A program made the translations under genes and the position numbers. A stretch of 64,000 nt of DNA from assembly GCA_973895155.1 (NCBI GenBank), contig OZ316899.1, positions 15,155,974 to 15,219,973 of the forward strand, given 5' to 3'. The notes beneath the pieces were generated by a model. That model was not told the DNA's origin and ran no database searches. It saw only the letters and a program-made list of their open reading frames with translations. Origin of the DNA: Marsupella aquatica. Its lineage: Eukaryota > Plantae > Marchantiophyta. This document shows, in pieces, positions 12,645-45,904 of the stretch; position 1 is the first letter of the stretch, and every line of letters begins with the position of its first letter.

Positions 12645-15600
12645 TGGGCCCATCGTTTCATGCAATAGGGCCCCGCATATCTAGGAGCGAGCTTCCTACT
12701 TTAGTTCCCATGGTATTGTTTAGGTCTCAATTGCAACCAAATGCTTTCCCCAATTTCAAAGTTTACCCAACATTGATGTTTATCCCCTTGCTCCTTGTAC
12801 CAACTTTGGGCAAGGGTCATACCCTTGGTAGCCGCTTCCACAACTAGGCGTCACTCTTGAATTAAATTGTCCGCAGAAGGAACCTTGCTTTCTGTCCACC
12901 AAGCTTCCGGATTTATGAACCAAGAGGGCGCCCTTAGCGTCCTCCCCATGGCCAACACAAACGGTGCAAACCCCGTTGCCAAATGCTTGGTCGAGTTATA
13001 CCTAGACTCGGCCATTGTTAAGTGCTTTGCCCAATCCTTTTGATTGGCCGTCACAAAGTGACGCAAGTAATCCTCCACAATACCATTCACCCGTTCCATT
13101 TGGCCATCTGTCTCATGATGATACAATGATCCCCTTGTCAGGTCTGTGCCGGATAATCGGAACAACACCTTTCATAAGTGGCCCGTGAACTTGGTGTCAC
13201 GGTGTGACATGATATGCAACGACAATCCCCATTGTCAAAAGACATTGTCAAACACTAGACCAACAACCTCTTGGGCCAAAATCATTTTTGTAGTCGCCAA
13301 GAAATACGTCATCTTGGAAAAATGATCCACAATTGTTAAGATGGAGTTACTGCCATGGGACTCAGGTAATCTCACAATGAAGTCCATGGAGATCAACTCC
13401 CATGGTGCCGCAACTACTGGTAAGGGTTGTAGATGTTCTCCTTTTGCCCTATAGACCGTTTGGTTCTTTTGGCACAAGTAACAACTTTGCACGTGGCAAA
13501 GAACCGATTGCTTCATGTCTAGCCCATACACATCTTGTGACATGTTGCGGTACGTAGCAGCTTGTCTGCCATGCCCTCCCCAAGGCAAGTTGTGGTACTT
13601 TGCAGAACCTCCATTCTTAGAGACTTTGGGATGTACACATGCCTCTGCTTGTATTGTCATAACTGGATATTATGCATGGTATCCAACCCAAATGAAACGT
13701 GCCTTACCTTGCCTTGGCTAACCCCATTGCTTTGCCATTCCTTGGCTAACCACTTGTCATCCCCGTACGCCTTGGCCAGAACCTTTGGGCACTTGGATTT
13801 GAGCATTGTGATCCCATTGACACGATGATGGTCCCTATTCAATAACGCGTCAGCTGCTATGTTTGTCTTCCCAGGAATGTGACGGACTTCAAAATCAAAA
13901 TCCGCCAAGAACATTTGTCAGCGCATTTCCTTGGGGTTTAGCCTTGGCTTAGAATTGATGTACCTTGTCGGCAAGCTATCTGTGTGTATTACCACTTTGG
14001 GACCGTTCTTAAGGTAAATTTCCCATTTCTTCAATGCATAGATCATTGCATACATTTCCCTTTCCGATGTGATCCAATGATTTTCAAACTTACATGATTC
14101 AAAGGCCACAGGACACCCATCTTGGTGAAGACAAGCGCCAATGGTGTAATCACTTGCGTCTGTCCAAATCTTGAAGGGCTTCCCCATCTCAGGTAACTTT
14201 AGAACCGGCGGCATTATCATTAGCCGCTTGAGTTCCAAGAATGATAACTCACAATCTTGTGTCCACACAAACACTTTGTTTTTCATTGTTAGTGCATTTA
14301 GGGGCCTCGCAATCCTCGCATAGTCTTTCATGTATCTGCAATAGAACCTCGTAAGTCCTAAGAAGGCTCTAACCTGCCTTACATTGGATGGGTGTTCTCA
14401 TTCCTTGATCTCCTTGAGCTTGTCCTGACTAGGCATATTCCCCTCCGGGGTAAAGGTATGGCCAAGGAACTGAATCTTGTTCATCGCAAACTTGCATTTG
14501 CTAAGTTTAGCAAAGAGACGAGCCTTACAAAAGTGAGAGAATACTTCCTTGAGCAACTGCCTATGTTCCTCCAATGTTTTCCAGTACATTAGGATGTTGC
14601 CAATAAAGACTACCACTCCTTGGTCCAACAAGTCATGAAAGATGGTATTCATCATTTTTATGAACATTGCGGTTGCATTACACAAGCCAAACAACATACC
14701 CAAAAAAATTGTAGGATCCAAACCTTGTGGGCATTGTGGTCTTATACTCGTCTCCCTTAGCCATGCGGATCTGGTACTACCCAGACCACAAGTCCACCTT
14801 TGAAAACTTCTTAGCCCCGGAGAGACAATCAAAGAGGTCATCCATATGAGGTAACGGGTACTTGTTCTTTACCATTTGCTTATAGTCACGAAACTTGACT
14901 ACCTTAACACTTAGCTCCAATGTTGCTGACTCCAACATCGAGCTCCCTTATGGTCTAGGCCCGGTTAGGCCATCCGGGGAGGACTTAGCATGGGGAGACT
15001 TGTGGACAATGAGACGTGGCACTAGTGAAGGCAAGGAGCCAAGCTGGTGACACACACTAAGGACTTAGGCAAGCTCAGAGCTGGTCAGGTCAAGGGGAAA
15101 GGGGCCGGACTCAAGGTTGACCATCCGGGCCCCCTGACGGACTTTGGGTTCTGAGGGCTTGAGTGTGAGCTCCTCTTGGGCCCAAGGCCAATGGAGTTGA
15201 CGCCATAGGCAACGGACGCTTGGGGCGTGAGTTATGGCCCGATCCGAGTTTGGCTGATCGGGTACCCCAAGGGCGATGAGACCTGAGGGTCTAGCCATGA
15301 GCACCGGGTTGGCCCGATCACAACGGGCTAAGGCACTCCACTTGCGGACGCCTAACGAGAAAGTTATGGGCGTTGCCAGTTAATGGCACGCCCAGTATGC
15401 GTGATCGGATCTGGGTTGGAGGCCAAAAGTTTAGGGACCAAAGTTGGTCCGGGGGTAGCAGGTCTCCAGAAGCATATATGAGGGGGTGGTGTCTCCCTGG
15501 GGGCCAAGGGCGAGCCAAAGTCGTGAGCCGCGGCGGTCGCGACACTAAGGGAAAGCGTCAAACGGAAACGGCGATATCTTTCCAACGGGAAGTCCGTTGG

Positions 15601-16397
15601 AGGACTTCTTAGGTGCGTTAGAAAGCTCTCAAGGACGGCTATGTCCTTTTGAGCTCATGTGGGTCTGGGGGTGCCATGGGTTCTTGAGGTTTGCGGGTGT
15701 TAGCTCGCCCGCTTGGGTAGGCAATCGCACGTCTTGGGGTGGACGTGCAAGAGTTGCTACAACCATTAGTGTGCAAGTTTGCCAACGACACAAAAGGGAT
15801 AGTGTCAAGAGTGGTACATAGACTTTGAGTAGAGGTCATAGGCAAAAAGCAAAATTTTGTTAGTCAGGAGATGTTCTACGTTCTAGACGGTCTAGCCGTA
15901 GACTTCATTTTGTCGGTGGGTTATCTCAGAAAGCACAGTGTTACCTTGAAACTGGGGATGAGGTGCTCCATTTTCCCAATAAGGGCAGTGAGCTCATTGT
16001 TGTACACGAGATTACCAAAAATAAAGAAAGATTTCTCAAAGTAAGTAAAGTGTCATGGTTGTCCCCGTGTGTATCGGCAAAGCAATGGTGGAAAAACTTC
16101 AAGGGTGGACATGAATGTTTCTTCTCTCATGTCCACCCAGTTAAGGAGGCTGCTTCGCAGCCAAAGGTTAAGTCATCTAAGGTTGGGCCTGACTGCGGTC
16201 AAATTCCCAAAATTTTAGAGGAATTCAACCACGTGCTCTCGCAGACGCTACCTAAAGGTTTACCCTCGCGGAGAGAAGTGGATCACCAAGTTAAGTTGGA
16301 GCCAGCTTTGGCTCCTCATGCTAAAGCTCCTAACCATCTGTACCTAAATGAACAAATGATGTTGAAAAATGCCTTGGAAGAGTTGATCAACCAAGAG

Positions 16398-17320
16398 TTC
16401 CGACAATGGGGATTGCCATTGCATATTCTGTCCAACCGCGATACCAAGTTCATGAGCCATTTCTGGAAGGCATTGTTTTGGTTATCCAAAATGGACCTTA
16501 CTAGGTGATCAGCGTATCCTCATGAGACGGATGGCCAAATGGAATGGGTGAATGGTATTGTGGAGGACTACTTGCGTCAATTTGTGATGGCCAATCAAAA
16601 GGATTGGGCAAAGCACTTAACTTTTCCCAAGTTTAGGTATAACTCGACCAAGCATTTGGCAAAGGGGTTTGCGCCATTTGTGTTGGCCACAAGGAGGACG
16701 CCAAGGGCGCCTTCTTGGTTCATAAATTTGGAAGCTTGGCGGACGGATGGCAAGGTTCCTTTTGCGGACAATTTTATTCGAGAGCGGCGCCTAGTTATGG
16801 AAGTGGCTACCAAGGGTATGACCCTTGCCCAAAGTTGGTACAAGGAGCAAGGGGATAAACATCGACGCCAGGTAAGCTTTGAAATTGGGGAGAGTGTCTG
16901 GTTGCAATTCAGACCTGAGAAATACCACAAGAACATAAGTAGGAAGCTAGCTCCTAGATATGCGGAGCCCTATCGCATCATACGATGGGCCCACAAGGAT
17001 AATCCGGTTTTGGTGGTGTTGGAGACACCCAAGGAAATGGGCGTGGGCAAAAGCTACTATGTTAGCCGGCTCAAGAAATTTGTCAAAGATGATGATCCCA
17101 ACCGGGATCAGGTCTTGCGTCCAAACGCCATGTTGGTGGAGGACGCGGAGGAGTTTTAGGTGGAGGCAATTCTGGACCACCGTTACAAATGCAAGTTGGA
17201 AAGGAAAATCTTAGAGTATTTGGTGAAGTGGTGGCTATGATCAGGCCAAGAGTACTTGGGAACCGGAAGAAAATTTGGGTAATGCCTCAGAGATCCTTGG
17301 AAGCTATTGTAAGCAAAGCG
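16398..17320 (+). pseudogene. Integrase C-terminal half with GPY/F region and chromodomain
   Basis: GLPLHILSNRD, ETDGQMEWVN and KLAPRYAEPY, followed by EEF*VEAILDHR..EYLVKW..STWEPEENLGNA with frameshifts (aromatic-cage type chromodomain). Confidence 0.88.
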
Positions 17321-17515
17321 GCCTACTGCCATTGTGAACTGGTACAGGCAACTGTAGCTACTTTTGTGACTTGTATCCTGGTTTCACTCCTCTCGACCTC
17401 TTAAGGACACAGTCAGATTGCGTTGGTGCTAGAGGGTGTTGGGCGCCCAATTTGCTTTTTGCGAGTGGAAGTTGATGGTGCCCGCCTTACATCTGTGGGC
17501 GGGCTGGTTCAAACC

Positions 17516-17522
17516 AAAGGGG
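17516..17522 (+). promoter_or_regulatory. Polypurine tract of copy C
   Basis: AAAGGGG immediately followed by AGT, the start of the 3' LTR. Confidence 0.6.
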
Positions 17523-18893
17523 AGTACCCCAAGGATAGGCCATACGGGGAGGACTTAGCATGGGGAGACTTGTGGGCAATGAGACGTGGCACTAGCAAAG
17601 GCAAGGAGCCAAGCTGGTGCCACACACTAAGGACTTAGGCAAGCTGAGAGCTGGTCGGGTCAAGGGGAAAGGGGCCGGACTCAAGATTGACCATCCAGGT
17701 CCCCGGACAGACTTTGAGTTCTGAGGGCTTGAGTGTGAGCTCCTCTTGGGCCCAAGGCCAATGGAGTTGACGCCATGGGCAACAGACGCTTAGGGTGTGA
17801 GTTATGGCCCGATCCGGGTCGGCCGATCGGGGACCCCAAACAGCGATGAGACCTGAGGGCCTAGGCATGAGCACTGGGTTGGCCCGATCACAATGGGCTA
17901 AGGCACTCCGCTTGCGGACGCCTAACGAGAAAGTTATGGGCGTTGCCAGTTGGTGGCGCGCCCACTATGCGCGATAGGATCCGGGTTGGAGGCCAAAAGT
18001 TTAGGGACCAAAATTGGTCCGAGGGTCGCAGGTCTCCAAAAGCATATATGAGGGGAGTGGTGTCTCCTTGGGGGCCAAGGGTGAGCCGAAGTCTTGAGCC
18101 GCGGCGGTTGCGACACGAAGGGAAAGCGCCAAACGGAAACAACGATATCTTTCCAACGGGAAGTTTGTTGGAAGACTTCTTGGGTGCGTTGGAAAGCTCT
18201 TAAGGAGGGCTACGTACTCCTGAGCTCATCTGGGTCTAGGGGAGCCATGGGTTCTTGAGGTTTGCGGGTGTTAGCTTGCCCGCTTGCCAAATCCTGCCAA
18301 ACAATAGCCAAGCCGTGTTCAGTCTCCCAAGGGATCTTGTGTTGGGGAGGCAAGGCCAAGTAGGCATGGAGGTTGAGTTTCAAGGGTGTTTGGCCCCTAG
18401 ACCATTAGTGGGGCAAGAACCAGGAGTAGGTTGCTAGAGCCGGTCATTCTGGTCCCGACGTGTTGGGACAAGCTTTAGGACAAGCTACGCTATTTGGGCC
18501 ATGAGCATGTCCTGGGGTCAGGGCGGTCAGTTGGTGATGGATAGGTACAAGGGGGAACCTGGGCCGCACCCAAGGAAGGAGTTGTTATGGACAAACAGTG
18601 GGCGTGGGTTCTGGTTCCGGCTTATGGCATCGGGAGGACTTATCGCTGACCTATTTACCAATGTCTGTTGAGCTTGAGTTAGGATGATAGACTTGGCAAA
18701 TTCTAGATCCTGAAGGGTTACTTACCAAGGCGTTTGGCTGCTTGTGCAGACAGTGAGGACCGTTGAGTAGCGGTCGTGTTGGAGAGCAAGTGCGGCTTTG
18801 TATGGGAGGGGCCGCTGGCGGTGCAAGGGGCACTAGGTTGCTTGCTCGAGGTATTTCGTGGAGGCGTTTGGGCACCAGGGGCACTAAAGCATG

Positions 18894-21800
18894 TGTAAGT
18901 AGTCAGTAATTCCAAAGGCATGAAGAAACCAATTTTTTAATTTTTTTTTGAATTATTTAAACTATATTTGCTGATAACTATAGAGTAAACTGCACTCCAA
19001 TTAAACTCTGCCAAAGTTACGAGTCCTTGAGTATAAGTTACGGGTAAACCATGTTACGAGTTGACAAGTATATGGGTATACGCGTTCAAGAGTATATGGG
19101 TATATGCGTTTAAGAGTTTACAGGTATAAGGGTTTACTCCTTACAACTTACGAGTTTGCGGTGAGTCCTGTGATCATGACATGCTACGGCTAACTCCAAC
19201 GGGACTTCGCAACGGAACGAGGAGCGCACCTTGAAAGGGAAGGGATGCAGGACATGGGCACTCATTCCTGACTTCTCTTCCGCCTTACCTCTCACCTCTC
19301 TTGACCCAAACAATTCTCCGCGCAACATAGTGAGCAGAATTCAAGACTTGGGTGCTGACAAGCAGTACCGTGTTGAAGCTCTAGCAATTCCAAGGGGTAT
19401 AGTAGCACAAATTCCACAGGCGCCCGACGGTTGTGCTAACTTACAGGCATCTTTACAATAGTTAGGACTAAAGCGTCTACTGGAGATCCCCCGGAATGTG
19501 GAACTCTACTCTTATTTACAAGATTTTGTGAAGGGGTCCATTATTTCCATTGAATTTTGACAAATCATTCGAGCTCGTTCGAGTTTGTGGATAGTTGAGC
19601 AGATTGCTTACGCCTTTGGCTGCTCATCAAAAGGAGAGGCATTGTATTCTAAGAAAAAAGATATATCCACACCTTACTTCTCAAGAATTTAAAATCTCAA
19701 GAATGGCTGGAATTTGACTCAGTGTACTTATCTTGAATTGAGAGTTCTCTTAGAATTCTTAGTGCCGATTCTTCACCCAAAGAAGCCAACCGTCTGTTTT
19801 GTAGCCTTGGCAAACACTATTGTAGCTGCTCACAGTGGAGCTATCCAAGTAAATTGGGCTTTGTTGATCTTTAATATTATGAAAGATCAAGTGAAGAGTT
19901 TGAAGGTAGGAAGACCCACTTGTTTGCAGAATTATCTGTCTCAACTCTACTATGCCTATGACTACTTACATCTTGAAGAGAGAACGGAGAAAGGGTTGCT
20001 CCTAATCAAACTAGGCATTGAAGAAGAGATTTTAATAGAAGAACCAAGACAGGCCATTCCACCGGATTCCAATGATCAGGATGTTGATGTGGACATTGAT
20101 GTTAATATGGAGGATGTCTCAATAGGTGGTTCTGAACCTTCACCTGTACACAACTTGGAGGACATCTGTCATCCAATGTATGACTTGCACTCTCCCAGGG
20201 AAACCAGTGGTGTAGATCAACTGGAAGCTGAAGGAGATGAGTTTTTACCTGAGCAACAAGAAGATGTTGCTGAACCGACTATTGCTGCCATTCATGGGGC
20301 CACAACGCCCACTTTTTCAGAAGCTGAGTCTAATCAGCAACTCATTGATAAGTTAACCTCTCTCTTTGGTTGTAGTGATGATGAACTCTATAATGTGGTT
20401 AGTGACTTGAGAATGGAGTCAGTTAGTCTGCAGTCACCTTTTTCAGATCAGTTGACTCCTATTAGAGCAACTTCACCCATAGGAAGTTCAGAACGAGAAG
20501 AATTTGTTGTTCTCACTCCATTACACAATAGAATCCCCCTATAGAACAGTGTGAACCTGTCTCAGAGATAGGAAACATAAGTTGTGTTGCAGTTATAAAT
20601 GACCTATTGGAAATGCTTCAGTGTGAACCCAAGGAGATAGTCTCTGTTGTCAGTGACTTAATTCAGAAGTACCTAGTACCCAAAGGCCCTTACAATCAGG
20701 GTGCATGCACTTATAGTCCAGATTCTAGTTATGAGCCAACAAATGGACCTATTTATACTCAACCACAGTATGAACATCCTTATGTTAGACAGGATCTCTC
20801 TGAAGACTCCGATCCATCCTTAGACGGTGAAATTTAAAGATCTTATGATAATTCTCTTGAGTCGTCACCAAGGCAAGGATTTGAAGATGTTGACGCTGCA
20901 TTACGGTCGAATCCAAATCTAGTGGCATTGGTTACTTCTTCTACTCAAACTCCTAGAAATGCTACTATTGAGAGTAGGTACCCTAGACACCCTGAGTCAT
21001 AAGTACACAGGTATGCCACCACTTGCAAAATAATGCAAGCCAACAGACCATCAGTTGGAGAATTCTCGAGATACTACTATCTGAAGAAGAGTGAGGCTAG
21101 TTACATCTTTGACCTCAGGTGTCATGGTACTTCTAGACTGGAGATGGCACAATTTGATGAATTCTGGACTAACTCTATGTACTTCCGGCCCATTCTTGCT
21201 GTGATGCTGCTACAAGGTGATGTGGAGGTGGAGGATCCTGATTTGGTCCTGGCGTATTTTGGAAACTTTGCAACTTATATTATGGATTTTGTAATCTCTT
21301 TTCTTATGCAAAGTAAGAAGTCCACTTCTCTTCAGAATGATTACATTCCTCAAAAGCCCAAGGTTGTACTCGTTTCGACTAGTACCTTAGCTGACAAACA
21401 AAGGATATGGAATAATGTTACCTCTCAGACTCTTGCTGAATTCAACCGATACTTCAGAGATGTCATTTGGAGATTTTGTCCTTTCTATTCTAGGACAATG
21501 AGACTAAAGATTTCCTATTCCATTACCCTCAAGTATATGCTGCTACCTGCAATCACTATGATGTGATTGGGATCTACCGAGAAGCACTTCATATAGACTC
21601 GTGTTACTTACGGAGAAGTTCCTGAGAGACAATTATGATGCCTACCCTATTCATGAGGATCATCACGACAAAGTGAGTTTATGGAAGTTACTCAATCTCA
21701 GACTGTTATCCTCGTGGAGCTTCTCAAACCAGATGATATCCGACAACAAGCTTGAGGCAAAATCTAAGTGTTTTAGTTAAGTTTTAAGAGTAGTGCATCT

Positions 21801-22946
21801 TTTCAGATTTTTCTAAATGTGTTCTAAAGTTTTAAAAGCTATGAGACTTTGTCAGGAGGTAGTCTGTACCTAGGAAAACTTGCTGGAAAAATTTCAAAGT
21901 TTTTTTAGCTAGGAGTATAAAGTTAAAAATAGTTGAATTTGCTAAGTTCTTAAGTATACCGCAATACAAGTTTACGAATTTCAAGTTAGTGACTTAGGAC
22001 TATAAGGCTTTACAGTTTTACGGGTTTACGAGTTCATACTTAGCCACTTTTCCGGCTTTTCACTTACATAATGGTCATTTTAACTATTTGAGAGGTATGA
22101 AGAGGCATGTCTCTTCAACCTTATGGCCTTTCATTCTATAGATTTTTACTATAAGATAGCTCTACCACTAGTGTAGTTTATGGTAAAGTTATGCATTTTC
22201 ACCTCTTCCTTGTGTTAAACCAATTGATCATGAATCTATGAGTTTGAGATCAGGTTTAACAAATAGGAGAGACTTTCCTCTTTCTTGTGTTTGTACCTCT
22301 ATTTATAAACATAGGAAGTAAAATCCATTTGTGTAAAATCTTTGGAGTTGTGATGATAGATTCCTTTTCGGTGATTCATTGCAATTTCTTAAGTTCTTAG
22401 AGTTAACTCATTGAGTTTAAGTCTTATTAAAATTGATGGATTTTTTTTCATGTTGCTTAGTACCATCTAAATGTTGAAGTAGCTACCTTTTAGATCGTGT
22501 CTGAGTATCACTTAGAAAGAAAAGACAAGACGTGTTGACGACACTTTAAAAGAGTACTCTAGTAGCATTTTAGACCTGAAAAGCAATGTGGGTTTGAATC
22601 TCATAAAGTCATTTCATTTTGACTAATGTTTAAGGAGTAACCTTGGTACATACCAGACTTCCTTGGCATACTTTAAGATATTTTCTGTGTGTTTTATTAA
22701 TTATTTTCTTTTATTAATTTATGTTTACACAATGTTGAGTTATCATTGAAAACTACTCACCGCTGTGGAGCGATCTTCAAAATACCTCAGTAAAGTAATC
22801 AAATTTGATTACTATGTGTGGGAAACATCTTAATTTCTTTATTATTGTTTAAAACTATCAAACCAACCTCATGTTGTTCTTTACGGGAACAAATACCGAG
22901 TTTGAAGACCTTTAAGTGTGTTTTTGGTTCTTCATGACAAACTACA
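18894..22946 (+). mobile_element. Solo-LTR-like element B (4053 bp, TG...CA) carrying a long ORF
   Basis: TSD GCATG/GCGTG with one transition (18889-18893, 22947-22951). Termini TGTAAG...ACTACA. The host LTR sequence resumes exactly after it. No gag/pol. Confidence 0.85.
19327..21755 (+). pseudogene. LTR-borne accessory ORF (~810 codons), decayed
   Basis: Pieces 19231-19461, 19714-20544, 20607-20837 and 21033-21566 plus tail. LEFLVPILHP, LANTIVAA, VNWALL, YLSQLY. The C-domain EFSRYYYLKK..RLEMAQFDEFWT..YFRPILAVM..LAYFGN matches element A. The start position is approximate. Confidence 0.85.
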
Positions 22947-25900
22947 GCGTGAGTGCTGGGATTGGTGCTAGGTGACTAGGTCCACCACTCTTATTGAGGA
23001 CTCAATAATCTATGCACAATCTCAAAGTACCATCCTTTTTGGACACAAACAGCACGAGCGCGCCATAAGGACTCTTACTAGGACGAATGAATCCTTGGTC
23101 GATCAACTCTTCCAACGCGTTTTTTAACATCATTTGTTCCTTTAGGTTCAGACAATAACGAGCTTTAGCCTGAGGAGCCAAACTTGGCTCCAACTCAACT
23201 TGGTGATTTACTTCCCTCCGCGAGGGTAAACCTTTAGGTAGCTTTTGCGAGAGCACATCATTGAATTCCTCTAAAATTTCAGGAATTTGATTGCAGTCGG
23301 GCCTGACCTTAGCTGACTTAATCTTTGGCTGCATAGCAGCCTCCTTAACTGGGTGGAGATGAAAGAAGAAACATTCATGTTCACCCTTGAAGTCTTTCCA
23401 CCATTGCTTTGCCAATACACACGGAGACAACCACGACACTTTACTTACTTTGATAAATCTTTCTTTATCTTTGATAATTTCATGTACAAGGATAGGCTCA
23501 CCACCCTTATTGGGAAAATTTAGCACCTCACCCCCCGGTTTCAAGGTAACATTGTGCTTTCTAAGATAACCTACTAACAAAATGAAGTCTACGGCTAGAC
23601 CTTCTAGAACATAGAATGTCTCCTAACTAACAAAATTTTGTTGTTTGCCTATGACCTCTACTCAAAGTCTATTACTAGTAGATTGACACTATCCCTTTTG
23701 TGTTGTTGGAAAACTTGCACACTAATGGTTGTAGCAACTCTTGCACGTCCACCCCAAGATGTGTCACTGCCTGCCCACTTATGAAGCAGGCGATCGCGCC
23801 TGTATCCACCAAAGCAACACCCAGATTACCGTTAGAAGTGACATTCACAAAAATCAGTTTATCAGGATCCATTGTCTTAACCTTGGGTACTTTCTCTCGC
23901 AACAACACCTTCTCTCCGACAGGAATATCCCCTACAGGGACCTCGTCAACTACTAAGGGTTTGGTTAGAGCGATACTTACCTTAACGCCCTTCTACCCCC
24001 AACTCCGCTCGGCTTGCCACCTTTCATGGGAGAATCCTTACTTTGATGGCCCATGGCGCCACATGTGTAGCACAAACCTTCAACCCGCCTCTGCTCCGTG
24101 AGCACCTTTTTTTTGGCTTTTTGCGCCAATGAGGTCCCTTTCTTGAAGTTGTTGGCCTTCCAGTTGCGCTTTGCTTCTCCGTTCTGGGGCTGAGGATTTG
24201 AACCACCAATCCCCGCCCCCTCAGGCTGCTTGTGCTTGTGCTTGTTTTTGGGACCTTTCACTTTCCTAGCTTCCCCTTTGGATCCTTTGCCACCCACCTT
24301 TGCCAAGTCCGTCCAGTTTTTCACTAGCGTAGTGGCCTTGTTAAAGGCGTCAGAAAGTGTTTTAAACTCATGACGCTTTTCTTGTAACTTTGTACCGAGC
24401 AACGGCGGGAACTTTACTATAAAGTTGTGAAGCTACGTATGTAGGGTCTCCTGCCCCGCCAGGATACACGCCAACTGGTTTTGGTAATAAGTGATGAACT
24501 TTTGGATATCACCCTTGAAGCTCATTTCCGTTACACATTTTTGCGCATGCCGCTCTGGGTACTTAGTGGTGACATGAGCACGGAGACCCTCAACCAAATT
24601 TTCCCAAGTTAATAGCAAGGAGGAGTCCTCTTGCAACTTCTTCCAAGACTTGTACCAAGTCAAGGCATAGTCCTTTAGGTAAGGAGCAGTTGTGGTCAAC
24701 CGTTTAAGAGTCGTTGGTCTTGAGTCAACATACCCAAACCGTCGTCAGCGGCTGGGGCCTTGCGGGTTGTACAAGGACAGTCCTCCAACCGCCTTTCCTT
24801 TGCGAGTCACCTGTCCTTAGGTTCTCTTGTGGATTTTGGTGACACCCCCCGTGACTTGCGGACACCATGACCTCCCAGGGCTGTGGCACCACTTGCATTG
24901 CCCTGGTTTTGCTTGGTCAAATTATCCACGATAATGTTTGGCTTGACATCATCCTCTGGTTTTGCATCCAACCCTCTTAAGGCTGGGATTAGTCCCTCTT
25001 CTAGGTCCTGACCCTCTTCCTTTGATTCAGTCTTTGAACCGTTATCGCTTTCATCTGAGTCGGAGCTGTCAATGCTTGACTTGTCCTTTGGAGGATTGGC
25101 CACCTCCTTCCCTTTAAGTTGACAATGCTCTACACTTGACGTGTTTGCTGTGGCAGTCGCCGGTTTGGCCGCCATGTCCTCATCATCCTGCATGTAGCAT
25201 TTTTCTAGGGAAGTCAACCCATCTTCCTTCTATTCTTCTTGAACCTGAGCTCTCTCCTTAGCCAAAGAGCCTTCTTGCCACTCTTTGATCGCATGTTCTT
25301 CACATGTCTCCAATGACCAAATCTGCCCAGTCAACCCGTCGGGCACATTGAAGCACTAAGCCCCCACAAAAATCCGTTAAGATTTTTGATTTCCAACCTA
25401 GCACAACTCCGACACGGTGTCTATGCCAGCAATTGCTTTGATACCACAAGTGGTGGACCTTGCCACCCAGTGCCCTCACCAATCCTGACACCCATGCCTA
25501 AGTGCCCCTGGTGCCCAAACGCCTCCATGGAATACCTTGAGCAAGCAACTTGATGCCCCTTGCACTGCCTACGGCCCCTCCATACAAAGTTGCACTTGCT
25601 CTCTAACACGATCGCTACTCAACGGTCCTCACTTTTCTGCACAAGCAATCAAGCGTCTCAATAAGTAACCCCTCGGGATCTAGATCTCCTTAGTCTAGCA
25701 TCCTAACTCAAGCTCAACAGAATTGGTAGTTAGGTCAGTGATAGGTCCTCCCGATGCCATAAGCCGAAACCAGAACCAACACCCATTGTTTGTCCAGAAC
25801 AACTCTTGCCTTGGGCGCCTCCCGAGTTCCCCCTCATACTTATCCATCACCAACTGACCGCCCTGCCCCCAAGACATGCTCATGGCCCAAATAGCGTAGC

Positions 25901-25990
25901 TTGTCCTAAAGCTTGTCCCAACACGTTGGGACCAGAATTGTCAACTCTAGCAACCAACTCCTGGTTTTTGCCCCACTGATGGTCTAGGGG

Positions 25991-26004
25991 CACTAGTAGA
26001 AACC
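25991..26004 (+). mobile_element. CACTA-type terminus (CACTAGTAGAAACC) interrupting the copy B LTR
   Basis: LTR homology stops exactly at GGG|CACTAG. The partner end and the rest of the LTR are not in the window. Confidence 0.7.
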
Positions 26005-28623: not shown

Positions 28624-28787
28624 TGTTGTGTGACAATGGAGAGACTTGCAACTCGCTATTGTGTTCCATTATGGGTGTGACTTATATAGTCACCATAGGG
28701 TTACATGTTGGGGTTGGTGTTAACCCATGTTACCCCTTCAGGATAGGGTTAGGGGTTAACCATGGTCTAGAGTAAATGGTTACAACA
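28624..28787 (-). repeat. 3' LTR of the copia element
   Basis: TGTTGTGTGAC...TTACAACA, preceded on the minus strand by PPT AAGGGGAAG (28788-28796). Confidence 0.97.
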
Positions 28788-29149
28788 CTTCCCCTTGGAG
28801 AGTTTAGGGGTATAAAATCACCACACTACTAACCCTATGTTTATTTTTGGTGCTACCCCATTAAAACCTTCTGCTTTCTTCATAAGGAAAAAGGGTTCTA
28901 GCCACCATTAGTAGGATTTTCTTAAATTTGCACTAAGGTGAGTCTACCTTATAATTTGTCCAAATGTAAAGTTTAATTTGGGTCCCCTATTACTAAAACT
29001 ACTTCCCCTTAGTTTAAATGGGGTGTTTACGATAATAATTATTCTATCTTGTATTGGTATGAAAAATCGTATTCTGTCTATGTATACAGGAACGAAAGTT
29101 TTAGGTTGCATCGTCGTCGAGTCGGCTGTCGTCTGTCGGCTCGAGCTGC

Positions 29150-32100
29150 TCATTCAAACTGTGGAGTTTCTCTCGTTTGTGTGTCGACGGGCAGGCGCAA
29201 TGTCGACAATCTTGTCATGCCGATCGCTGCTACGTGCTTTCGATGGAGGCTGGCGGGTAATGGCTTCGTGAATAGATCAGCACAGTTCTCCTGGGAGCTC
29301 TTCCAGTGCACATGGATGTGTTGCCCTATCTGTTCATGGGTAAAGAAAAATTTTGGGTCGATATGCTTCGTGCGGTCTGTCTTCATATATCCTGCATTGA
29401 TTTGGTCCACGCAAGCTTTGTTATCTTCATGGATAATCGTCGGTTTGGTGAGTAGTGGCTTACCAGTATTCTTGCGGATGTGGTTTATGATGTTTCGAAG
29501 CCATAGCGCTTCTCTTGTTGCTTCGTAAAGAGCTATTACTTCTGAATGATTGGACGATGTGGTAGTCAAGGTTTGTTTTGTACTGCGCCATGATATTGCT
29601 GTGTTGCCTTGCAAGAAGACATAACCAGTCTGAGATTTCGAGTCATGCGGATCGGATAGATATCCAGCGTCCGCGTATCCTTGCAGTTCATCCGGGTTAT
29701 CATTGGCGAAATACAGGCCCATATCCATGGAGCCTTGAAGATAACGAAATAGTCGTTTGATGCCGTTCCAGTGGCGAATAGTAGGTTGGGCGCTATGTCG
29801 TGCCAAGAGACTCACTGCAAATGAAATGTCGGGACGGGTGTTGTTCGCCAGATAGAGGAGAGCTCCGATTGCAGATAAATAAGGCTTGTCTGCATCAAGA
29901 AGTGGTTCATTTTCTTGTCTCCTTCTAAACATATCTTTAGTGGTGTCCAGGGATCGCATCTCCATGGGAGTCGAGACTGAGTAAGCATTCTGCATGTTAA
30001 ACTGTCGAAGAATTTTCTTTGTGTAAGTTGATTGACTAATAAACATACCTTGTGGCAGGTGGTCGAACTGTAGACCGAGGCAATACGTCGGTTCTCCCAG
30101 TTCTTTCATTTCGAAGATGCCCTTCATTGTATTAATAGTCTGCTTTAATAGCTTGGGGGTGCCGAACAGATTGACGTCATCAACATATAGTGCTAATATC
30201 ACGAACTCAGGTGCTAGGTGTTTTATAAAAATGCAAGGGGCGAGGTCGTCATTTATAAAGCCAAGAGTCTGCATCTTAGTTTTGAATGTCTGATACCAGA
30301 TGCGTCCGCTCTGTTTCAGTCCGTTTATTGATTTAAGGACTTGCACAGCAAATGCCTGCTGTCCAGTCCCATATTTACCTGGGTACTGGAGTGGTTCTTT
30401 GAGTGTGTTGCCACTGCTCAACACTAGGCCTTTAATGTCATCATCAGGGACAATCTGTCGAAGTCCCGACTTCATGTCCTGACTTAGGGTATGTATATTC
30501 TTCCCCTGGATGTGCTCTACCACTCTTTCGAGCAATTCCTTTGGAGCTTTCATATATATTTTGGAGTCTAAGACTCCATATAGGTACGCAGTTACCACGT
30601 CCATGAGTATGTTTTTGAGTTTATGCTTTCTTGAAAAAGATATTAAGTACCTAAAGGTAGTTACATCCATAACTGGCGAATAGGTTAAATCGTAATCCCT
30701 TCCAGGGATTTGGGTGTAGCCTTTCGCTACAAGCCTTGCTCGATATCTTATGACATCTCCTTGGGCATTGCGTTTTCTAACGAATATAAAACGACTATCT
30801 GTATAGTCATTCTTTGGTTGTACAACCTTAACTGGGCCGAATACTTGTCTTTTGATTAATGCGTCCATTTCTGTATTGATAGCCTCTCTCCACTGTGGCC
30901 AATCGGGCCTTTTCTGTGCTTCTTTGATTGTATAGGGATCAGGTGTATCATTTGAGATGGATTGGGCTATATGATAAGCAAACTGCTCGTCTATTATTGT
31001 GTTTGATCGAGCATAAATGTGTCCTGTGTGTGTGTATTGAATAGACATTTCTTCATTATCTGGTGCCCTCTTTTTCTCTGGTTCGATACTGACCAGATTA
31101 AATGTGGTTTCAGTATTTACCGTTTGTGTACGTCTCTGGCGAGGGCGAGAATCAGTGGATCCTAGTGGGCGTCCTCTCTTCGCCTTAGGTAAGGTTTCCT
31201 TTGCTTGAGTTGGCAGCAGCTGAATCCGAGCTGGGGTATTGACTGCTTCAACATGTGATCTGGTCACATTTGCTGCGTCATTGAAAGCGTCAGGAATCTT
31301 TTCCAACATTTCGTGGAGATGTAATAAGCGCCTTACCTCCTCGTCTGCACTTTGAGTTCTTGGATCTTGATTGAGTAGATTTCTGCTATTCCAATTGAGC
31401 TGTACTGGTGTTATGTCGTGTGATGTAGTTGGCGCCTTAAGTAATGAGGGGAAAATTTCCTCATAGAAATGGCAGTCAGCGTGTCTTGCTTTAAATACAT
31501 CAGCTGTGCTAGGTTCCAGATAGCGGATAATAGACGAGGAGTCATGGCCAATATAAATACCTTCTCTCCTCTGTGGGCCAAGTTTGGATCGATGTGGCCC
31601 AAGGATGGGTACCATCACTTTACATCCGAATACTCTAATGTGTGAAAGGTCAGGGGGTAAACCGAATGCAAGGTGATGAGGGGTTTTAGTATTAAATGCT
31701 GACGGCCGATACTTAAGCAAAGTTGTTGCATGGAGGACAGCGTGTCCCCATGCTGAAGGTGGTAGTTTAGAGTTCAATAGAAGTGGCCTTGTTATCATTT
31801 GAATCCTTTTTATGACTGACTCTGCTATGCCGTTCTGGAAATGGACGTAAGGAACTGAGTATTCAATGTCGATCCCCGCTGTCATACAGAAGTCGTCAAA
31901 TGCTCTGGAGGTAAATTCCCCTGCCCCGTCCACTCGCAATTTCTTAATTGGACAATCTGGGAATTGTACTCGAAGTTTTAATAAGTTGGCTAAGATTCTG
32001 GCAAAGACCAGGTTACGAGTAGAAATTAATGAAACGTGGAGCCATTTAGTTGAAGAGTCTACAATGGCTAAAAAATATCTGAAAGGCCCACTTGGAGGGT

Positions 32101-33790
32101 GTATTGGCCCGCAGACATCAGCATTTAGACGTTCCAGGAATTTAGGGATAGTATAGATGGTCTTTTGTGTAGCTGGGCGTGTACTCAGCTTCCCCTGAGA
32201 ACATGCAAGACATTGCTTATGATTTATAGATGGACGCACTCCTTTAGGGATTCCTCGTGAGTCCTTGATGATGCGACGGTACATATTTATTCCCGGGTGC
32301 CCCAGTCGACAGTGCCAGAGGTATGTAAGATTATTTGATTCTGCTGTGGCATAGTTCGCTGTTATTGGGGCTGCATATAAACCCGGGGGTATTAGAGGTA
32401 GTATCTCTTTGATTTGAATTCCATCTGTGGTCATGGCTACTATTTGCAAAGTAGGTTTCTGCTGGATCATTGCTGTGCGGAGTTGATAATTATTAGCAAC
32501 AACGTCTTTGAAGCTAATCAAATTTCGAGTAGCTTTTGGTGCAAAGATAGCTGCTTCGATGTTAATGACTGTTCCTTGGGGAAATTTGACAGTAGCCTTT
32601 CCTGTTCCTTCCTCAATCTTATTCGTACCTGATATGGTTGTCATTATCCTGGCAGATGGAGTGATATCTTGGAAATAACTCCTATCTTTTAGGATAGTGT
32701 GGGATGTCCCACTATCAATGATACCTAAATTGGGATCGTTGGAGGAGGGATATGGTGGCTCTTCTGTCACCAGATGAGCTTCAGCGTTGGATTGGTCTAT
32801 CGTATCATTTTCTTCTCGATAAGATGGTAGCTCCTCTTCCAATTCCATATAGTTGCCATCTGGATTTTGCTTTAACTTAGCTCTTGCTTCTGAGTGCCTC
32901 TTAGCCGCTTGGTCAGAAGCCCAGCAGTCTTTCTTTAGGTGGCCAATTTTTCCACATCTATAACACATTCGGTCTTCTCGTGTGTTGTCAGATGATTGGG
33001 CGTGACCTCTGCCGCGTCCTCTTCCTCTACCCCGGCCACGGCTTCTGCTGCCTCGACCTCTGGTATTTTCATACTGATTTCCCCTTCCACTATAATTTGA
33101 GTTGCGACCTCGTCCTCTATATCCACCTCTTTGTGTACCCCGGCCTCTTATATTTCGTTGTTGGTCTTCTGGGGCATTGTAATTAATTTCTGGTTTCTGT
33201 GGTATAGGTGCAGTGCCTGGTGGTCGTTTCCTTGCATTCTGTATAGAGACAATTTGTTGTTTCTCCTCTACTAGGAGATGTGCAATTAAGTTAGAATAAG
33301 TTGTGAATTGCATATTCCTGTATTGAGTTCCCAAGGCGATGTTGGCCTCTGGGAAAGTACTCAACGTTTTATCGATTTTGTCTAAGTCTGCAACTGGGTG
33401 GCCACACATCTCCAATTGAGATGTAATACGAAATAGAGAACTATTATAATTTGCTATAGAAGTATGATCCATGACACGTAGATTAAACCAATCCCTGCGG
33501 GCTTCTGGGAGCCAGACCTCTCGCATATGGTCAAATCGAGCTTTTAATTTGTCCCATAATAGACGGGGATTAAGATCACTCATATATTGTGTCTTCAGTG
33601 ATGGTGTCAAATGCTGTCTAAGTAGAAATACAGCTTTGGCCTTCTGTTGCAATGTTAAATTGTCATCAGTAATTAATGTATCCTCTAGTTGTATTGATGC
33701 GAAGTAGGTCTCTACATCTATTGACCAGGTTAAGTAATTATTGCCATCTGCCAATAGGGCTGGAAAGTGTAATTTCTCCAGGGTGGCCAT
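29150..33790 (-). CDS. gag-pol: Ty1/copia Gag-Pol polyprotein (1546 aa)
   Basis: Bianca-type gag (ALLADGNNYLTW..KAKAVFLLRQHL), CYRCGKIGHLKKDC knuckle, protease IIDSGTSH, integrase LWHCRLGHPG..LRVDGAGEF..QNGIAE, RT YRARLVAKG/DVVTAYLYG/LYVDD and RNase H GYADAGY/IHEDN/ADLFTK. Confidence 0.97.
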   Translation of the reverse strand: MATLEKLHFPALLADGNNYLTWSIDVETYFASIQLEDTLITDDNLTLQQKAKAVFLLRQHLTPSLKTQYMSDLNPRLLWDKLKARFDHMREVWLPEARRDWFNLRVMDHTSIANYNSSLFRITSQLEMCGHPVADLDKIDKTLSTFPEANIALGTQYRNMQFTTYSNLIAHLLVEEKQQIVSIQNARKRPPGTAPIPQKPEINYNAPEDQQRNIRGRGTQRGGYRGRGRNSNYSGRGNQYENTRGRGSRSRGRGRGRGRGRGHAQSSDNTREDRMCYRCGKIGHLKKDCWASDQAAKRHSEARAKLKQNPDGNYMELEEELPSYREENDTIDQSNAEAHLVTEEPPYPSSNDPNLGIIDSGTSHTILKDRSYFQDITPSARIMTTISGTNKIEEGTGKATVKFPQGTVINIEAAIFAPKATRNLISFKDVVANNYQLRTAMIQQKPTLQIVAMTTDGIQIKEILPLIPPGLYAAPITANYATAESNNLTYLWHCRLGHPGINMYRRIIKDSRGIPKGVRPSINHKQCLACSQGKLSTRPATQKTIYTIPKFLERLNADVCGPIHPPSGPFRYFLAIVDSSTKWLHVSLISTRNLVFARILANLLKLRVQFPDCPIKKLRVDGAGEFTSRAFDDFCMTAGIDIEYSVPYVHFQNGIAESVIKRIQMITRPLLLNSKLPPSAWGHAVLHATTLLKYRPSAFNTKTPHHLAFGLPPDLSHIRVFGCKVMVPILGPHRSKLGPQRREGIYIGHDSSSIIRYLEPSTADVFKARHADCHFYEEIFPSLLKAPTTSHDITPVQLNWNSRNLLNQDPRTQSADEEVRRLLHLHEMLEKIPDAFNDAANVTRSHVEAVNTPARIQLLPTQAKETLPKAKRGRPLGSTDSRPRQRRTQTVNTETTFNLVSIEPEKKRAPDNEEMSIQYTHTGHIYARSNTIIDEQFAYHIAQSISNDTPDPYTIKEAQKRPDWPQWREAINTEMDALIKRQVFGPVKVVQPKNDYTDSRFIFVRKRNAQGDVIRYRARLVAKGYTQIPGRDYDLTYSPVMDVTTFRYLISFSRKHKLKNILMDVVTAYLYGVLDSKIYMKAPKELLERVVEHIQGKNIHTLSQDMKSGLRQIVPDDDIKGLVLSSGNTLKEPLQYPGKYGTGQQAFAVQVLKSINGLKQSGRIWYQTFKTKMQTLGFINDDLAPCIFIKHLAPEFVILALYVDDVNLFGTPKLLKQTINTMKGIFEMKELGEPTYCLGLQFDHLPQGMFISQSTYTKKILRQFNMQNAYSVSTPMEMRSLDTTKDMFRRRQENEPLLDADKPYLSAIGALLYLANNTRPDISFAVSLLARHSAQPTIRHWNGIKRLFRYLQGSMDMGLYFANDNPDELQGYADAGYLSDPHDSKSQTGYVFLQGNTAISWRSTKQTLTTTSSNHSEVIALYEATREALWLRNIINHIRKNTGKPLLTKPTIIHEDNKACVDQINAGYMKTDRTKHIDPKFFFTHEQIGQHIHVHWKSSQENCADLFTKPLPASLHRKHVAAIGMTRLSTLRLPVDTQTRETPQFE

Positions 33791-34231
33791 AGTATCTCAA
33801 ATCTGTAACAAATCACTGTCCGCGTTCTGATTAATATCAAATCTATGTCGTTCTCAATTACTTCAATCACTCGTGCCTTTTTATCCACGGGATTTTCCTT
33901 GGCGATAAAAGAAACTCAGGATTTCCGTGGCGGAACAATAAGATATAAAAAAAATTGAGTCGAATTTGAACGGGAAAACACTATTTCAAAGTGATTCATG
34001 CCTCTCCGATAGTGTCACTAATCAATTATATACGGATTGTGTGTTTTCCGTAAGGATTCGTGGACTATTCAGAGGATCCGAAGTTTAAATTATGGTGTGA
34101 TTTGAATCGGTGGCAGTTACTGATGTGGGGTGGGGCTAAAAACGCAACATTGGAAGTCAATTTCTTTGTCTGAAAGCCGTACTCCAATTATCCTACCTTA
34201 ACTCCAAACTGGAAAAAAAATTTAGATGCTA

Positions 34232-34245
34232 TCGCGCTGATAACG
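34232..34245 (-). promoter_or_regulatory. Primer-binding site, probably for a half-molecule tRNA
   Basis: CGTTATCAGCGCGA follows the 5' LTR directly and is not a TGG-type PBS. It is complementary to the anticodon arm of tRNA-Ile(IAU) as recalled (inference). Confidence 0.6.
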
Positions 34246-34409
34246 TGTTGTGTGACAATGGAGAGACTTGCAACTCGCTATTGTGTTCCATTATGGGTGT
34301 GACTTATATAGTCACCATAGGGTTACATGTTGGGGTTGGTGTTAACCCATGTTACCCCTTCAGGATAGGGTTAGGGGTTAACCATGGTCTAGAGTAAATG
34401 GTTACAACA
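34246..34409 (-). repeat. 5' LTR of the copia element
   Basis: Same 164 bp as 28624-28787. Confidence 0.97.
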
Positions 34410-36295
34410 AAAGTCTTATTTTTCAGAATAATTAAAATCATAGGTTTTTTTTGCAAGCGCCAAGCGCTGCTATTGTTAGCTCCGGGCGCTAGCAATATGA
34501 TGATGACAAACCAAAACAAACAAACAAAAAATTCTCCCAAAAAACATTTTCCAAAAAAAATCAAAAAAAATTACCACCCACTTTCCTGTTACCAGTAACT
34601 GTTTCTTGTTACTGTTTCCTGTTTCCTGTCGTTTGTAAATACCCCCTTCTCATAAGACAACCAGTCAAGCATGTAAAGTTGCAGCTAAACGTCACAAGGA
34701 GAGTGATGATGATGTGAGATCTCAAGTAGGTGTCCAAGAACAACCTTCTGGTTTTGAACCTCAAACGGCTCATGAACATATTAGCATGATAGATCCCTTA
34801 TATTCTTCTATGAGTACACCAGTTGCCAATCATGTGGAAGATGTATTATGCACTCCAGTAAGTGAATTCTACAAAGCTAGTCAACCAGCAGATCATTTTG
34901 ATTCCACATTACACCTTGTAGCCTTCATTTGACAAAGTAGGAATACTATGGGACTGTCTATGAAAGACACTAGAAGACTATTAAGTCTTGTCTTCCATAC
35001 AGAGTTCTCACTCACAAACATAGATGTGAAAAATGTGAGTGACCTTGTCAAGTATGAGAAGAGAATTGCAAGTACTCACACTGTTACATGGAAGCAAGTG
35101 ATAGTTTGCCCGAAAGGCTTCCATATACTGGAGCTTGTGCTACATTATCAAGATCCAGTGGATGTCTTGTGTAGACTGTTTTCGAACGTGAGTAACAAAG
35201 AGAATTTTAAAGTTGGTCCATCCCAACCAGGTCTGACAAGATGTTATAGAAGTCCAGACACTGGAGATTGGTGGAGACAAATGCAGGTGAGGACCCTCCA
35301 GTCTTCATTGTGCACTTATGTTAGTGAGTTTTGAATGGACTTCAGTCAACGGTGTACTAACCTTTCATTTTCCTTTGACACAAGATAAAATTGATGAGAA
35401 ATGTCCTGGTACGTGGAGTCATCGCAGCAATCATACTTTATTCTGATCAAACTGGGCTACCAAACAACCAGAGAGTATCTAGTTATCCATTAATGATATC
35501 GCTGGCAAACATTGAGTGTGTCGGGAGGCGAGAGGAGTCGGGTAATGCTTTGCTTGCAATTATTCCCATGTATGGAGCTTCTGATCCAGACTATACAAAT
35601 TCTAAGCATCCTACTCGCCTCAAGATCTCTCTACTCCACAAGTGCTTGACCATCATATTGGCGCCCTTGAAGGCATTAAGTTACATGTAAGTGACATGCA
35701 GTTTTGATGAAGATGCCAGTCTTGATGACACATGTACTCTTATCTATTAAAATTCTGAAATTGTATACCTCTAATGCAAACATTCTTTTGTCCAGTGGTT
35801 TGCCCTTGGAAGATCCTTGGGGATGTCAAAGATGGGTGTTTCCTCTTCTGTATGGATATGTTGGAGATCATCCAGAAACCTGCAAAGTGACTTGCACTTT
35901 CGATTCAAAACCCTGCAATTTCCCCTGCAGTGTTTGTGTATGCCCTAAAGAACAGGTTAGTGTTGTTACAGTCACACATGAGTATCATACTCAGAATCAA
36001 ATGACAAGTGTTTATAATGAGACGGTTATGGCATCTACATGTGTGACTGATGAAAGGGCAAAAAGAGTCTGTGCATCCTGTCCAGGTATGCTCATTTTGT
36101 ATGGTGTTGAGTCTGTCAATCTTGTTGCTATGCTTTACCTTTTTACATGTCTTTTTCTTGTATCCTGACATCACATTAAAGCAGTTGTTTATATCTGCAG
36201 CGTGCGCTTTGGGGATTTTTTGGTGGGAAGACCATCTTAGGAAATCCTTACAGATCGGTGCATCTAGACAAGATGCACCAGTTTGAGTTAGGTTT

Positions 36296-39815: not shown

Positions 39816-39849
39816 ATTACACAACAAATAACTAGCACCCCAATTTCCT

Positions 39850-43389: not shown

Positions 43390-43979
43390 TATTATAAGGG
43401 TACTAATATTGTCAGGTTTAGACCCCCTTTACCTTGCTTTTGACCAGTGGGTGGGTGAATCCTCATGCCAAACCCACACGGATGATCCAAAAGATCATCC
43501 AAACATTGTTTGAACCAGGGGATTTTATTCTTGACTTTTTCTCTAGCGATCAAGTGATGAAAACATCCCTTTTTTCTCAATGTGAATGTTTTGTTTATTG
43601 TGACTCTCAACATGAGAGACATTTTGTGGAAGCATACGCTTTGTTCCTTTGCAAGAGGGTTCCCACCATCAAAGATCGTTATGATTATGCCGGTGGAAGT
43701 TCTAGACATTGGGAACCCAAAACTGGTGCTGTTGCTATTCAGGATGAATCAGATGGTGATTGGGAAGATGGGGCTGACCAATCAGTCAAAGGTGATGGGC
43801 CATTGGAGGGGGCATATGTGAAGAATTTGGATGACCAAGTTGGTGAGGGTGAAAATATTGACCTTGTCGAAGACAATATGATTGTTGGATATGCACCTTG
43901 CAATTCACCAATTACCAATGTCGCCCCCATGGGCCCCAACAAGGGCCAGTTTGATGATAACTTGGATAGAGATGGTCTC
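43390..43979 (+). pseudogene. Remnant of an amino (N6-adenine/N4-cytosine) DNA methyltransferase-like gene, C-terminal motifs X-I
   Basis: TNIVRFRPP..GWVNPHAKPTRMIQKIIQTLFEPGDFILDFFSSDQV resembles HPxQKP..LI...PGDxVLDPFxGSG. An acidic tail follows and is cut by the LTR at 43980. No DPPY motif seen. Confidence 0.55.
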
Positions 43980-45473
43980 AGTCGCGGAACTCGACTACCT
44001 TAACACTTAGCTCCGACATCGCTGACTCCAACGCCGAGCTCCCTTATGGTCCAGGCCCGGATAGGCCATCCGGGGAGGACTTAGCATGGGGAGACTTGTG
44101 GGCAATGAGACGTGGCACTAGCGAGGCAAGGAGCCAAGTTGGGGGCACACACTAAGGACTTGGACTAGCCTATGGCTGGTTGGGTCAAGGGGAAATGGGT
44201 CGGGCTCAAGGATGGCCGTGCGGACTTTCGGATGGACTTTGAGTTCTGAGGGCTTGGGAGTGAGCTCCTCTTGGGCCCAAGGCCAATGGAGTTGACGCCT
44301 TTGGCAACGGACGCTTGGGGCGCAAGTTGTGGCCCGATCCAAGTTGGGCCGGTCGGGGGCCTCGAGAGGCAATCTGACCTGAGGGCCTAGGCATGAGCAC
44401 TGGGTCGGCCCAGTCACAACGGGCTAAGGCACTCCGCTTGCAGATGCCTATCAAGAAAGTTATGGGCGTTGCTAGTTGGTGGCGCACCCATTATGCGCGA
44501 TGGGATCCGGGTTGGGGGCCAAATGTTTAGGGACCAAAGCTGGTCCGGGGGTGGCAGGTCTCCAGAAGCATATATGAGGGGAGTGATGTCTCCCTGGGGG
44601 CTAAGGGCGAGCCGAAGTCGTGAGTCGCAACGATCGCGACACTAAGGGAAACCGCCAAACGGAAATGGCGATATCTTCCCAACGGGAAGTCCGTTGGAGG
44701 ACTTCTTAGGTGCATTGGAAAGCTCTTCAAGAGGGCTACGCCCTCCTGAGCTCAACTGGGTTTGGGGGTGCCATTGGTTCTCGTGGCTTGCGGGTGTTAG
44801 CTCGCCCGCTTGCCAAATCCTGTTGAACAGCAGCCAAGCCGCGTTCAGTCTCCCAAGGGAGCTTGCGTTGGGGAGGCAAGGCCAAGTAAGTGTGGAGGCT
44901 GAGTTCCAAGGGTGCTTGGCCCCTAGACCACCAGTGGGGCAAACCAGGAGCGGTTGCTAGAGTCAGGGCCGTTCTGGGCCCGACGTGTTGGGACAAGCTT
45001 GGGACAAGCTTTAGGACAAGCTACTCTATTTGGGCCATGAGCATGTCCTGAGGTCAGGGCGGTCAGTTGGTGATGGATAGGTACGAGGGGGAACCCGGGC
45101 CGCGCCCAAGGAAGGAGCTATTCTAGACGAACAGTGGGCGTGGGTTCTGGCTCCGGCTTATGGCATGGGGAGGACCTATCGCTGACCTATTTACCAACGT
45201 CTGTTGAGCTTGAGTTAGGCTGCTAGACTTGGCAAGTTCTAGATCCTAAAGGGTTACTTACCGAGGTGTTTGGTTGCTTGTGCAGATAGGGAGGACCGTT
45301 GAGTAGCGGTCGTGTTAGAGAGCAAGTGCGGCTTCGTATGGGAGGGGTCGTTGGCGGTGCAAGGGGCACTAGGTTGCTTGCTTGAGGTATTTTGTGGAGG
45401 CGTTCGGGCACCAAGGGCACTTAGGCGTGAGTGCTGGGATTGGTGAGGGCGCTGGGTGGCAAGGTCCACCACT
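43980..45473 (+). repeat. Complete chromovirus-family LTR (1494 bp, AGT...ACT)
   Basis: Starts AGTCGCGG and ends CCACCACT, followed by TG and a PBS. Homologous to the partial copies elsewhere in the window. Confidence 0.93.
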
Positions 45474-45475
45474 TG

Positions 45476-45487
45476 TGGTATCAGAGC
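45476..45487 (+). promoter_or_regulatory. PBS for initiator tRNA-Met
   Basis: TGGTATCAGAGC, 2 nt after the LTR end. Confidence 0.92.
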
Positions 45488-45618
45488 GATTGTTGGCATA
45501 GACACTGGGCCGGGGTTGTACTAAGTCAGAATCCAAAAATCTTAACCAATTTTTGCGGGGACTTAGTGCTTCAACGTGCCCGACGGGTTGACTGCGGGCA
45601 GATTTGGTCGTTGGGAAC

Positions 45619-45900: not shown

Positions 45901-45904
45901 GAGA

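Follow-up and report, generated by a model that had tools for sequence, protein, structure and literature searches.

The long terminal repeats (LTRs) of plant retrotransposons almost always begin with TG and end with CA. Departures from this form were surveyed with LTR_retriever in 50 plant genomes, and the preprint (10.1101/137141) reports seven non-canonical end types, 89% copia, in which the first T alone was invariable. A study of lotus (PMC9804982) described nine non-canonical types whose first base was always T, and stated that plant non-canonical ends alter only the last base, to T. Additionally, TG/CA was found to be missing in 3 of 26 diatom CoDi families (PMC2806351), and REXdb retained TG/CA elements only (PMC6317226). 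Here, a chromodomain-bearing Ty3/gypsy family with AGT...ACT termini is described from a 64,000-nucleotide stretch of Marsupella aquatica (contig OZ316899.1, positions 15,155,974 to 15,219,973 of the forward strand), called the window hereafter and numbered from its first letter. Plant non-TGCA elements and this family have a 3′-terminal T at the U5 end in common (TGCT, TACT, TGGT and TGTT in the former). However, the described plant elements start with T, are mostly copia and have short LTRs near genes, whereas the family starts with A, is changed symmetrically at both ends and is a long-LTR gypsy. A literature search, which had most subscription papers outside its reach, returned no report of a plant LTR element with an A start or with AG...CT or AGT...ACT ends.

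The closest described systems are the Galadriel and Galahad chromoviruses (PMC3350952, PMC2864245, PMC6317226), with which the family shares a Met-type primer-binding site (PBS), LTRs longer than 1 kb, a CCHC knuckle, the order protease, reverse transcriptase, ribonuclease H and integrase (PR-RT-RH-INT), and a 5-bp target-site duplication. As in SM1- and SM2-Galahad of Selaginella, its group I chromodomain has all three cage aromatics; the Galadriel chromo box is described as being without the third one (PMC3350952). On the other hand, SM1-Galahad ends in TG...CA whereas the family ends in AGT...ACT, and the family is without an integrase loop proline that its sister group has. The earlier note on this DNA had pointed to insect errantiviruses as a parallel, and this is borne out in print: the gypsy, ZAM and Idefix subgroups have AGT/AnT termini and, like the family, a palindromic target preference (PMC5408687). 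Errantiviruses differ in belonging to another Ty3/gypsy lineage, in carrying env without a chromodomain and in using a 4-bp target motif, as against the 5-bp site and weak preference of the family (PMC5408687). The family resembles them at its ends and is not a member: despite the matching termini, membership was rejected on the chromodomain, the approximately 0.2 kb of 3′ untranslated region (UTR) seen after it and the plant chromovirus placement.

Termini of the family and how their boundaries are fixed

Self-comparison of the window showed that six LTR pieces form one family, with 83–92% identity where the overlap exceeded 250 bases, and the complete LTR, that of copy F, measures 1494 bp and is followed by TG and a Met-type PBS (Table 1). 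The earlier note had read AGT as the LTR start and CCACCACT as the LTR end at several positions. The start was confirmed at 14884, at 43980 and, on the reverse strand, at 12644, and the end letters are present at 5547, 22989, 45473 and, on the reverse strand, 25449, a 2-nt TG spacer preceding the PBS at 45476 and, on the reverse strand, at 25446. The 3′ ends that are joined both read CT, so that the inner C is kept. Further matches to CCACCACT at 21016 and 17227 were considered and proved not to be LTR ends.

The boundaries of copy C are fixed, as had been claimed, by the CTTAT duplication, which is present on both sides and agrees with an empty-site paralogue. An uninterrupted paralogous stretch of RT (10660–11415) reads G-CTTAT-T at the insertion point of copy C and, therefore, A14884 and T22989 are not target bases and no longer duplication is possible. 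The start of copy B at 12644 is fixed in a similar way by the homologous site in copy C, where the next base is C and not A. At 5547, only part of the reading stood: the letters are there, but no independent boundary is, because TG follows, just as it does in the spacer before the PBS, and the alignment to the homologous empty site is poor there. The AGT at 17523, which had been taken for an LTR start directly after the polypurine tract (PPT), was a misreading, since it lies in 3′ UTR sequence beside a deletion. In fact, the match to the LTR start is limited to AGT there, contigs from sequencing runs pass 17534 into non-LTR sequence (4, 10, 5 and 13 contigs, agreement 0.90–0.93), LTR sequence in the 3′ end of copy C begins only at 17533, at about LTR position 80, and the PPT and the start of the 3′ LTR are deleted from this copy.

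Independent insertions were sought in public sequencing runs, seven of which contain part of the LTR, four of them at 41–52% of sampled words; they carry two organism labels and come from two studies, and no RNA run is listed among those that contain the LTR. When the contigs of these four runs were mapped to 43900–45600, contigs left the LTR exactly at A43980 (33, 98, 66 and 95) and exactly at T45473 (37, 122, 93 and 117) in all four, and beyond these two positions the flanks were unrelated to one another, with an agreement of just 0.34–0.39. No pile-up at a neighbouring base was present among the 24 loose-end rows listed for the four runs, 2821 further rows existing. The family is high-copy, with at least 100 insertions per sample. 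Around the 5-bp duplication, the flanks of three runs are mirror images in their majority letters, GTGG before and CCAC after; this comparison used majority letters and no per-position frequencies, and the runs have insertions in common. Random window flanks reached such symmetry in at most 2 of 2000 trials for runs X2 to X4 and in 14% for X1, while the two fully readable target sites of the window match 3 and 5 of the 8 letters. The palindromic target preference of the family is weak.

Three other LTR units in the window have TG...CA ends with 5-bp duplications, indicating that AGT...ACT is a trait of the family and not of the genome. Taken together, these results support the view of the earlier note that this chromodomain Ty3/gypsy family has non-canonical AGT...ACT termini; of the two observations it had named as contrary to its view, no TG...CA copy was seen, and the empty site of copy C rules out a longer target site. 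At 45468–45479, where the LTR end, the spacer and the start of the PBS meet, the 12-bp sequence falls short of a perfect palindrome only at its centre, where the terminal T stands in place of A; this hints at a CA-ending ancestor.

Coding content and placement among chromoviruses

The features found are those of Ty3/gypsy chromoviruses, namely the order PR-RT-RH-INT (in copy D and in the intact relative P0134, of 1606 residues), a chromodomain at the C-terminus of the integrase, LTRs, a PBS and a 5-bp duplication; the TG...CA termini typical of the group are the feature that the family is without. In the window, gag-PR-RT-RH-INT of copy D is broken, and copy C has an integrase tail with SH3 and chromodomain. 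The PBS is of the type that matches tRNA-Met. The nearest named proteins come from the liverwort Calypogeia fissa, with 65–75% identity over the main matches, which points to a leafy liverwort as the likely host.

A midpoint-rooted FastTree phylogeny of RT-RH-INT was built from the 184 of 422 proteins with a single alignment over 620 of 701 residues (669 columns). In this tree, which had no labelled REXdb references, the family and P0175 fell within a 60-sequence clade (Shimodaira–Hasegawa-like support 1.0); their neighbours there are a Riccia element and a clade in which all the named members belong to flowering plants. Fungal and algal sequences were placed elsewhere. An RH-INT tree of 105 of 127 proteins gave the same sister relation with a support of 0.975. 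On the flowering-plant side, 44 of 51 proteins have the Galadriel-type chromo box without the third cage aromatic, and on the side of the family 8 of 9 keep all three, as described for Galahad: Tyr/Phe, Trp and Tyr in P0134 and seven near relatives, and Phe, Trp and Tyr in copy C. The family is likely a Galadriel/Galahad-type chromovirus, a name based on tree position and chromo-box features. Membership of the Tcn1 clade was considered as well; this clade is described as self-priming, with no tRNA PBS, and as grouping with fungal Tf1/Sushi elements (PMC6317226), and it was rejected given the Met PBS of the family and the fungal sequences falling elsewhere in the tree.

Searches of IMG/VR by protein or motif returned no relative, and no retroelement was among the 109 matches to the ACT-spacer-PBS pattern. 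The single metagenome match to the LTR end (L001) was a chance match in a bacterial gene.

A candidate integrase residue and the explanations of the altered ends

In the foamy-virus integrase, Pro214 to Gly218 are described in a review as pushing in between the DNA strands, where they are stacked on the adenine (PMC6784120), and residues 212–214 also contact the trimmed dinucleotide (PMC3395085). His143 of protein P0001 aligned with Pro214, the numbering having been checked on Asp185 and Glu221, and a His codon occupies the equivalent position in both integrase copies of the window, C and D. The loop motif was located in 368 of the 422 proteins, many of them redundant, the other 54 being without a match. 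In the lineage of the family, all 20 proteins are without proline (18 His and 2 Ser; P0277 was counted here owing to its 72% identity), the relatives from Calypogeia fissa being among those with His, whereas Pro is found in 343 of the 348 others, and the nearest sister group, with the Riccia and P0208-type elements, keeps it. Additionally, other gypsy integrases on circular contigs have Pro in 18 of 18 cases, and TG or CA is present in each of the 10 whose end could be read (by eye). The predicted integrase fold matches the Ty3 and foamy intasomes; that of PR-RT-RH added no further information.

The reading that we consider probable is that of a high-copy Galadriel/Galahad-type family whose AGT...ACT insertions lie in 5-bp duplications and whose integrase co-evolved to join a 3′-terminal T at both ends. 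Priming would take the ordinary tRNA-Met route, leaving a cDNA whose U5 end carries the TG spacer, from which the integrase would trim two bases. It would then join CT-3′ instead of CA-3′ with a 5-bp stagger; at each end, the inner C:G pair would presumably be retained and the outermost base pair alone replaced. The loop affected by the Pro-to-His change is the one stacked on the terminal adenine in foamy virus, and His there could accommodate or favour T. The three copies nested in their own family would fit a group I chromodomain that directs insertions to silenced chromatin.

Several points weigh against this reading. The residue–end link is a correlation in one lineage, in which LTR ends were read for this family only, and thus reflects one or two events. 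Five of the 348 unrelated proteins are also without the loop proline. The lotus copia family NN00507, listed as TG...CT, keeps the loop proline (read by eye), so that loss of proline is not required to join T at one end; a neighbouring lotus family with a CT end, NN00506, has Ser at this position in a degenerate exemplar (read by eye). Moreover, the Pro-to-His change may concern the 2-nt spacer instead of the terminal base, and the AlphaFold model leaves the loop unresolved (predicted local distance difference test score below 50 at residues 140–145). At the level of the ends, the true junction of PPT and U3 was seen in no copy, being deleted in copy C, the only one that reaches the PPT, and a minor TG...CA subfamily may exist among the loose-end rows beyond those listed. 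The altered end recognition proposed by the earlier note has gained a specific candidate, the replacement by His at the Pro214 equivalent, and retains the weakness of a one-lineage correlation set against a TG...CT copia family with proline.

An integrase merely tolerant of the terminal base, with two substitutions that drifted to fixation and an unrelated Pro-to-His change, is a serious though clearly less probable explanation. It is favoured by the 6203 TG...CT copia copies reported in lotus, where canonical and non-canonical elements are mixed in the tree (PMC9804982) and where NN00507 keeps its proline, as well as by P0015 and P0175, relatives at a greater distance in which the proline has already given way to Ser. 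However, tolerance predicts asymmetric or mixed ends, while the family has T at the joined position of both, consistently over hundreds of flanks, and the plant surveys found no first base other than T. Keeping the inverted symmetry at both ends needs two separate substitutions, which argues for preference over mere tolerance. A shift in the register of primer removal or trimming would place the former CA terminus two bases within today's U5 end (CA-CT-TG-PBS): a duplicated TG would have lengthened the spacer, and a cut made at a measured distance would now leave CT. This would suit the U5 end, which reads CCACCA-CT and then TG-TGG. It was judged improbable, since positions 3–4 of U3 show no TG (AG-TC) and AGTCACG is one base away from TGTCACG, the start of an ordinary chromovirus (L008), which points to substitution and not to shift. 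The least credible view, to which hardly any weight was given, is that the A and the T are foreign to the element, through a longer palindromic target, decay of TG...CA after insertion or a permuted LTR. The weak palindromic preference around the duplication and the age of the copies implied by their divergence could be read in its favour. Nevertheless, the G before and T after CTTAT in the empty site refute it for copy C, the three true starts and four ends of the window all agree, and a permuted layout, with insertions starting and ending inside the repeat unit, was rejected because the LTR between the two pile-ups is a single contiguous unit whose end lies 2 nt from the PBS, the PPT side not being seen.

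Beyond joining of T by the co-evolved integrase, a bolder and quite tentative idea is that the Pro214-equivalent residue is a gate enforcing the terminal A of the CA rule; a lineage that lost it could shift to T at both ends and acquire a stronger palindromic target preference. Such a loss would be expected to recur wherever A...T ends evolved, as in this liverwort clade and in insect errantiviruses, whose integrases may likewise be without the loop proline.

Copies, neighbouring elements and significance

Table 1. Positions of the family's copies and their parts in the window
Feature	Position	Strand	Remarks
Copy C, whole insertion	14884..22989	+	AGT start, ACT end; internal deletions
Copy C left target-site duplication, CTTAT	14879..14883	+	
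Copy C right target-site duplication, CTTAT	22990..22994	+	
Empty-site paralogue with single CTTAT (copy B RT region)	11074..11078	+	G and T as neighbours
Copy F complete 5′ LTR, AGT...ACT	43980..45473	+	both ends are contig pile-up positions
Copy F 2-nt spacer TG and Met-type PBS	45474..45487	+	PBS from 45476
Copy B 5′ LTR	11416..12644	-	AGT start at 12644; 3′ part deleted; sits in copy D integrase gene
Copy D 5′ LTR, 3′ part	25435..25991	-	ACT end at 25449; TG spacer; PBS at 25446, one mismatch
Copy D broken gag-pol (zinc knuckle, PR, RT, RNase H, INT)	12645..24432	-	split by copy C, 14884–22989
Copy D integrase His codon, equivalent to foamy-virus Pro214	13115..13117	-	
Copy C integrase C-terminal half, SH3 and group I chromodomain	16402..17334	+	stops and frameshift; His codon 16521–16523
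Copy C 3′ UTR sequence to deletion junction (GG microhomology)	17523..17534	+	
Copy C 3′ LTR, from LTR position ~80 to ACT end	17533..22989	+	split by unrelated TG...CA unit 18894–22946
LTR 3′ fragment with CCACCACT end	4974..5547	+	boundary without independent support

The copies of the family in the window are old and broken. In copy C, LTR positions 1–832 are fused to PR/RT at about 15715, and RT is fused to INT at about 16400. The pol of copy D hosts both copy B (at 12644) and copy C (at 14884), of the same family, in a region rich in internal deletions. Copy F stops after approximately 370 bases of the gag region (45865–45960), and next to the break lie short tandem repeats and nine bases that match the left junction of the copy in inverted orientation.

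Other elements surround these copies. Two TG...CA units with 5-bp duplications, at 18894–22946 (4.05 kb) and 6150–10659 (4.51 kb), each contain a related broken open reading frame (ORF; 43% identity over 111 residues). ORF 3914–4576, which follows the integrase of a non-chromovirus gypsy element (RT-RH-INT, 559–3141), is homologous to the ORFs of both units with 33–36% identity. A young copia element at 28624–34409 has 164-bp LTRs that are 100% identical, TGTTG...CAACA ends, an AAAGT duplication and an open frame of 1548 codons. Pieces of a CACTA-type transposase (Transposase_21, DUF4218 and Transposase_24) lie at 48236–54079, a Plavaka-like piece at 35695–36168 and a BRCT piece at 55087–55593. 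Outside the window, L015:2465–7933 is a TG...CA gypsy element whose pol frame continues past the chromodomain into an apparent cytosine methyltransferase domain (by eye), and L082:1–5332, filed as a Wolbachia plasmid, is a circle of a gypsy LTR retrotransposon.

The AGT...ACT family is a real and high-copy case of a new terminal form in a known chromovirus clade, and the integrase change is a testable candidate for its cause. According to two plant-wide surveys, LTRs invariably start with T; a high-copy family breaks this rule, which is partly a product of search filters. The earlier note expected annotation tools based on TG...CA to miss the family. This holds for tools restricted to TG/CA, as REXdb was, or to the seven T-starting motifs of LTR_retriever, but homology-based annotation would probably still find it. 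Callers of intact elements that demand such motifs would skip the family, and its boundary could easily be misplaced at the CA that lies two bases inside the U5 end. The proline swap also provides a testable handle on why integrases almost always join A, and work on this question has until now used CA-ended retroviruses only. If the loop residue does act as a gate, surveys based on TG...CA would fail to see an entire bryophyte branch of Galadriel elements.

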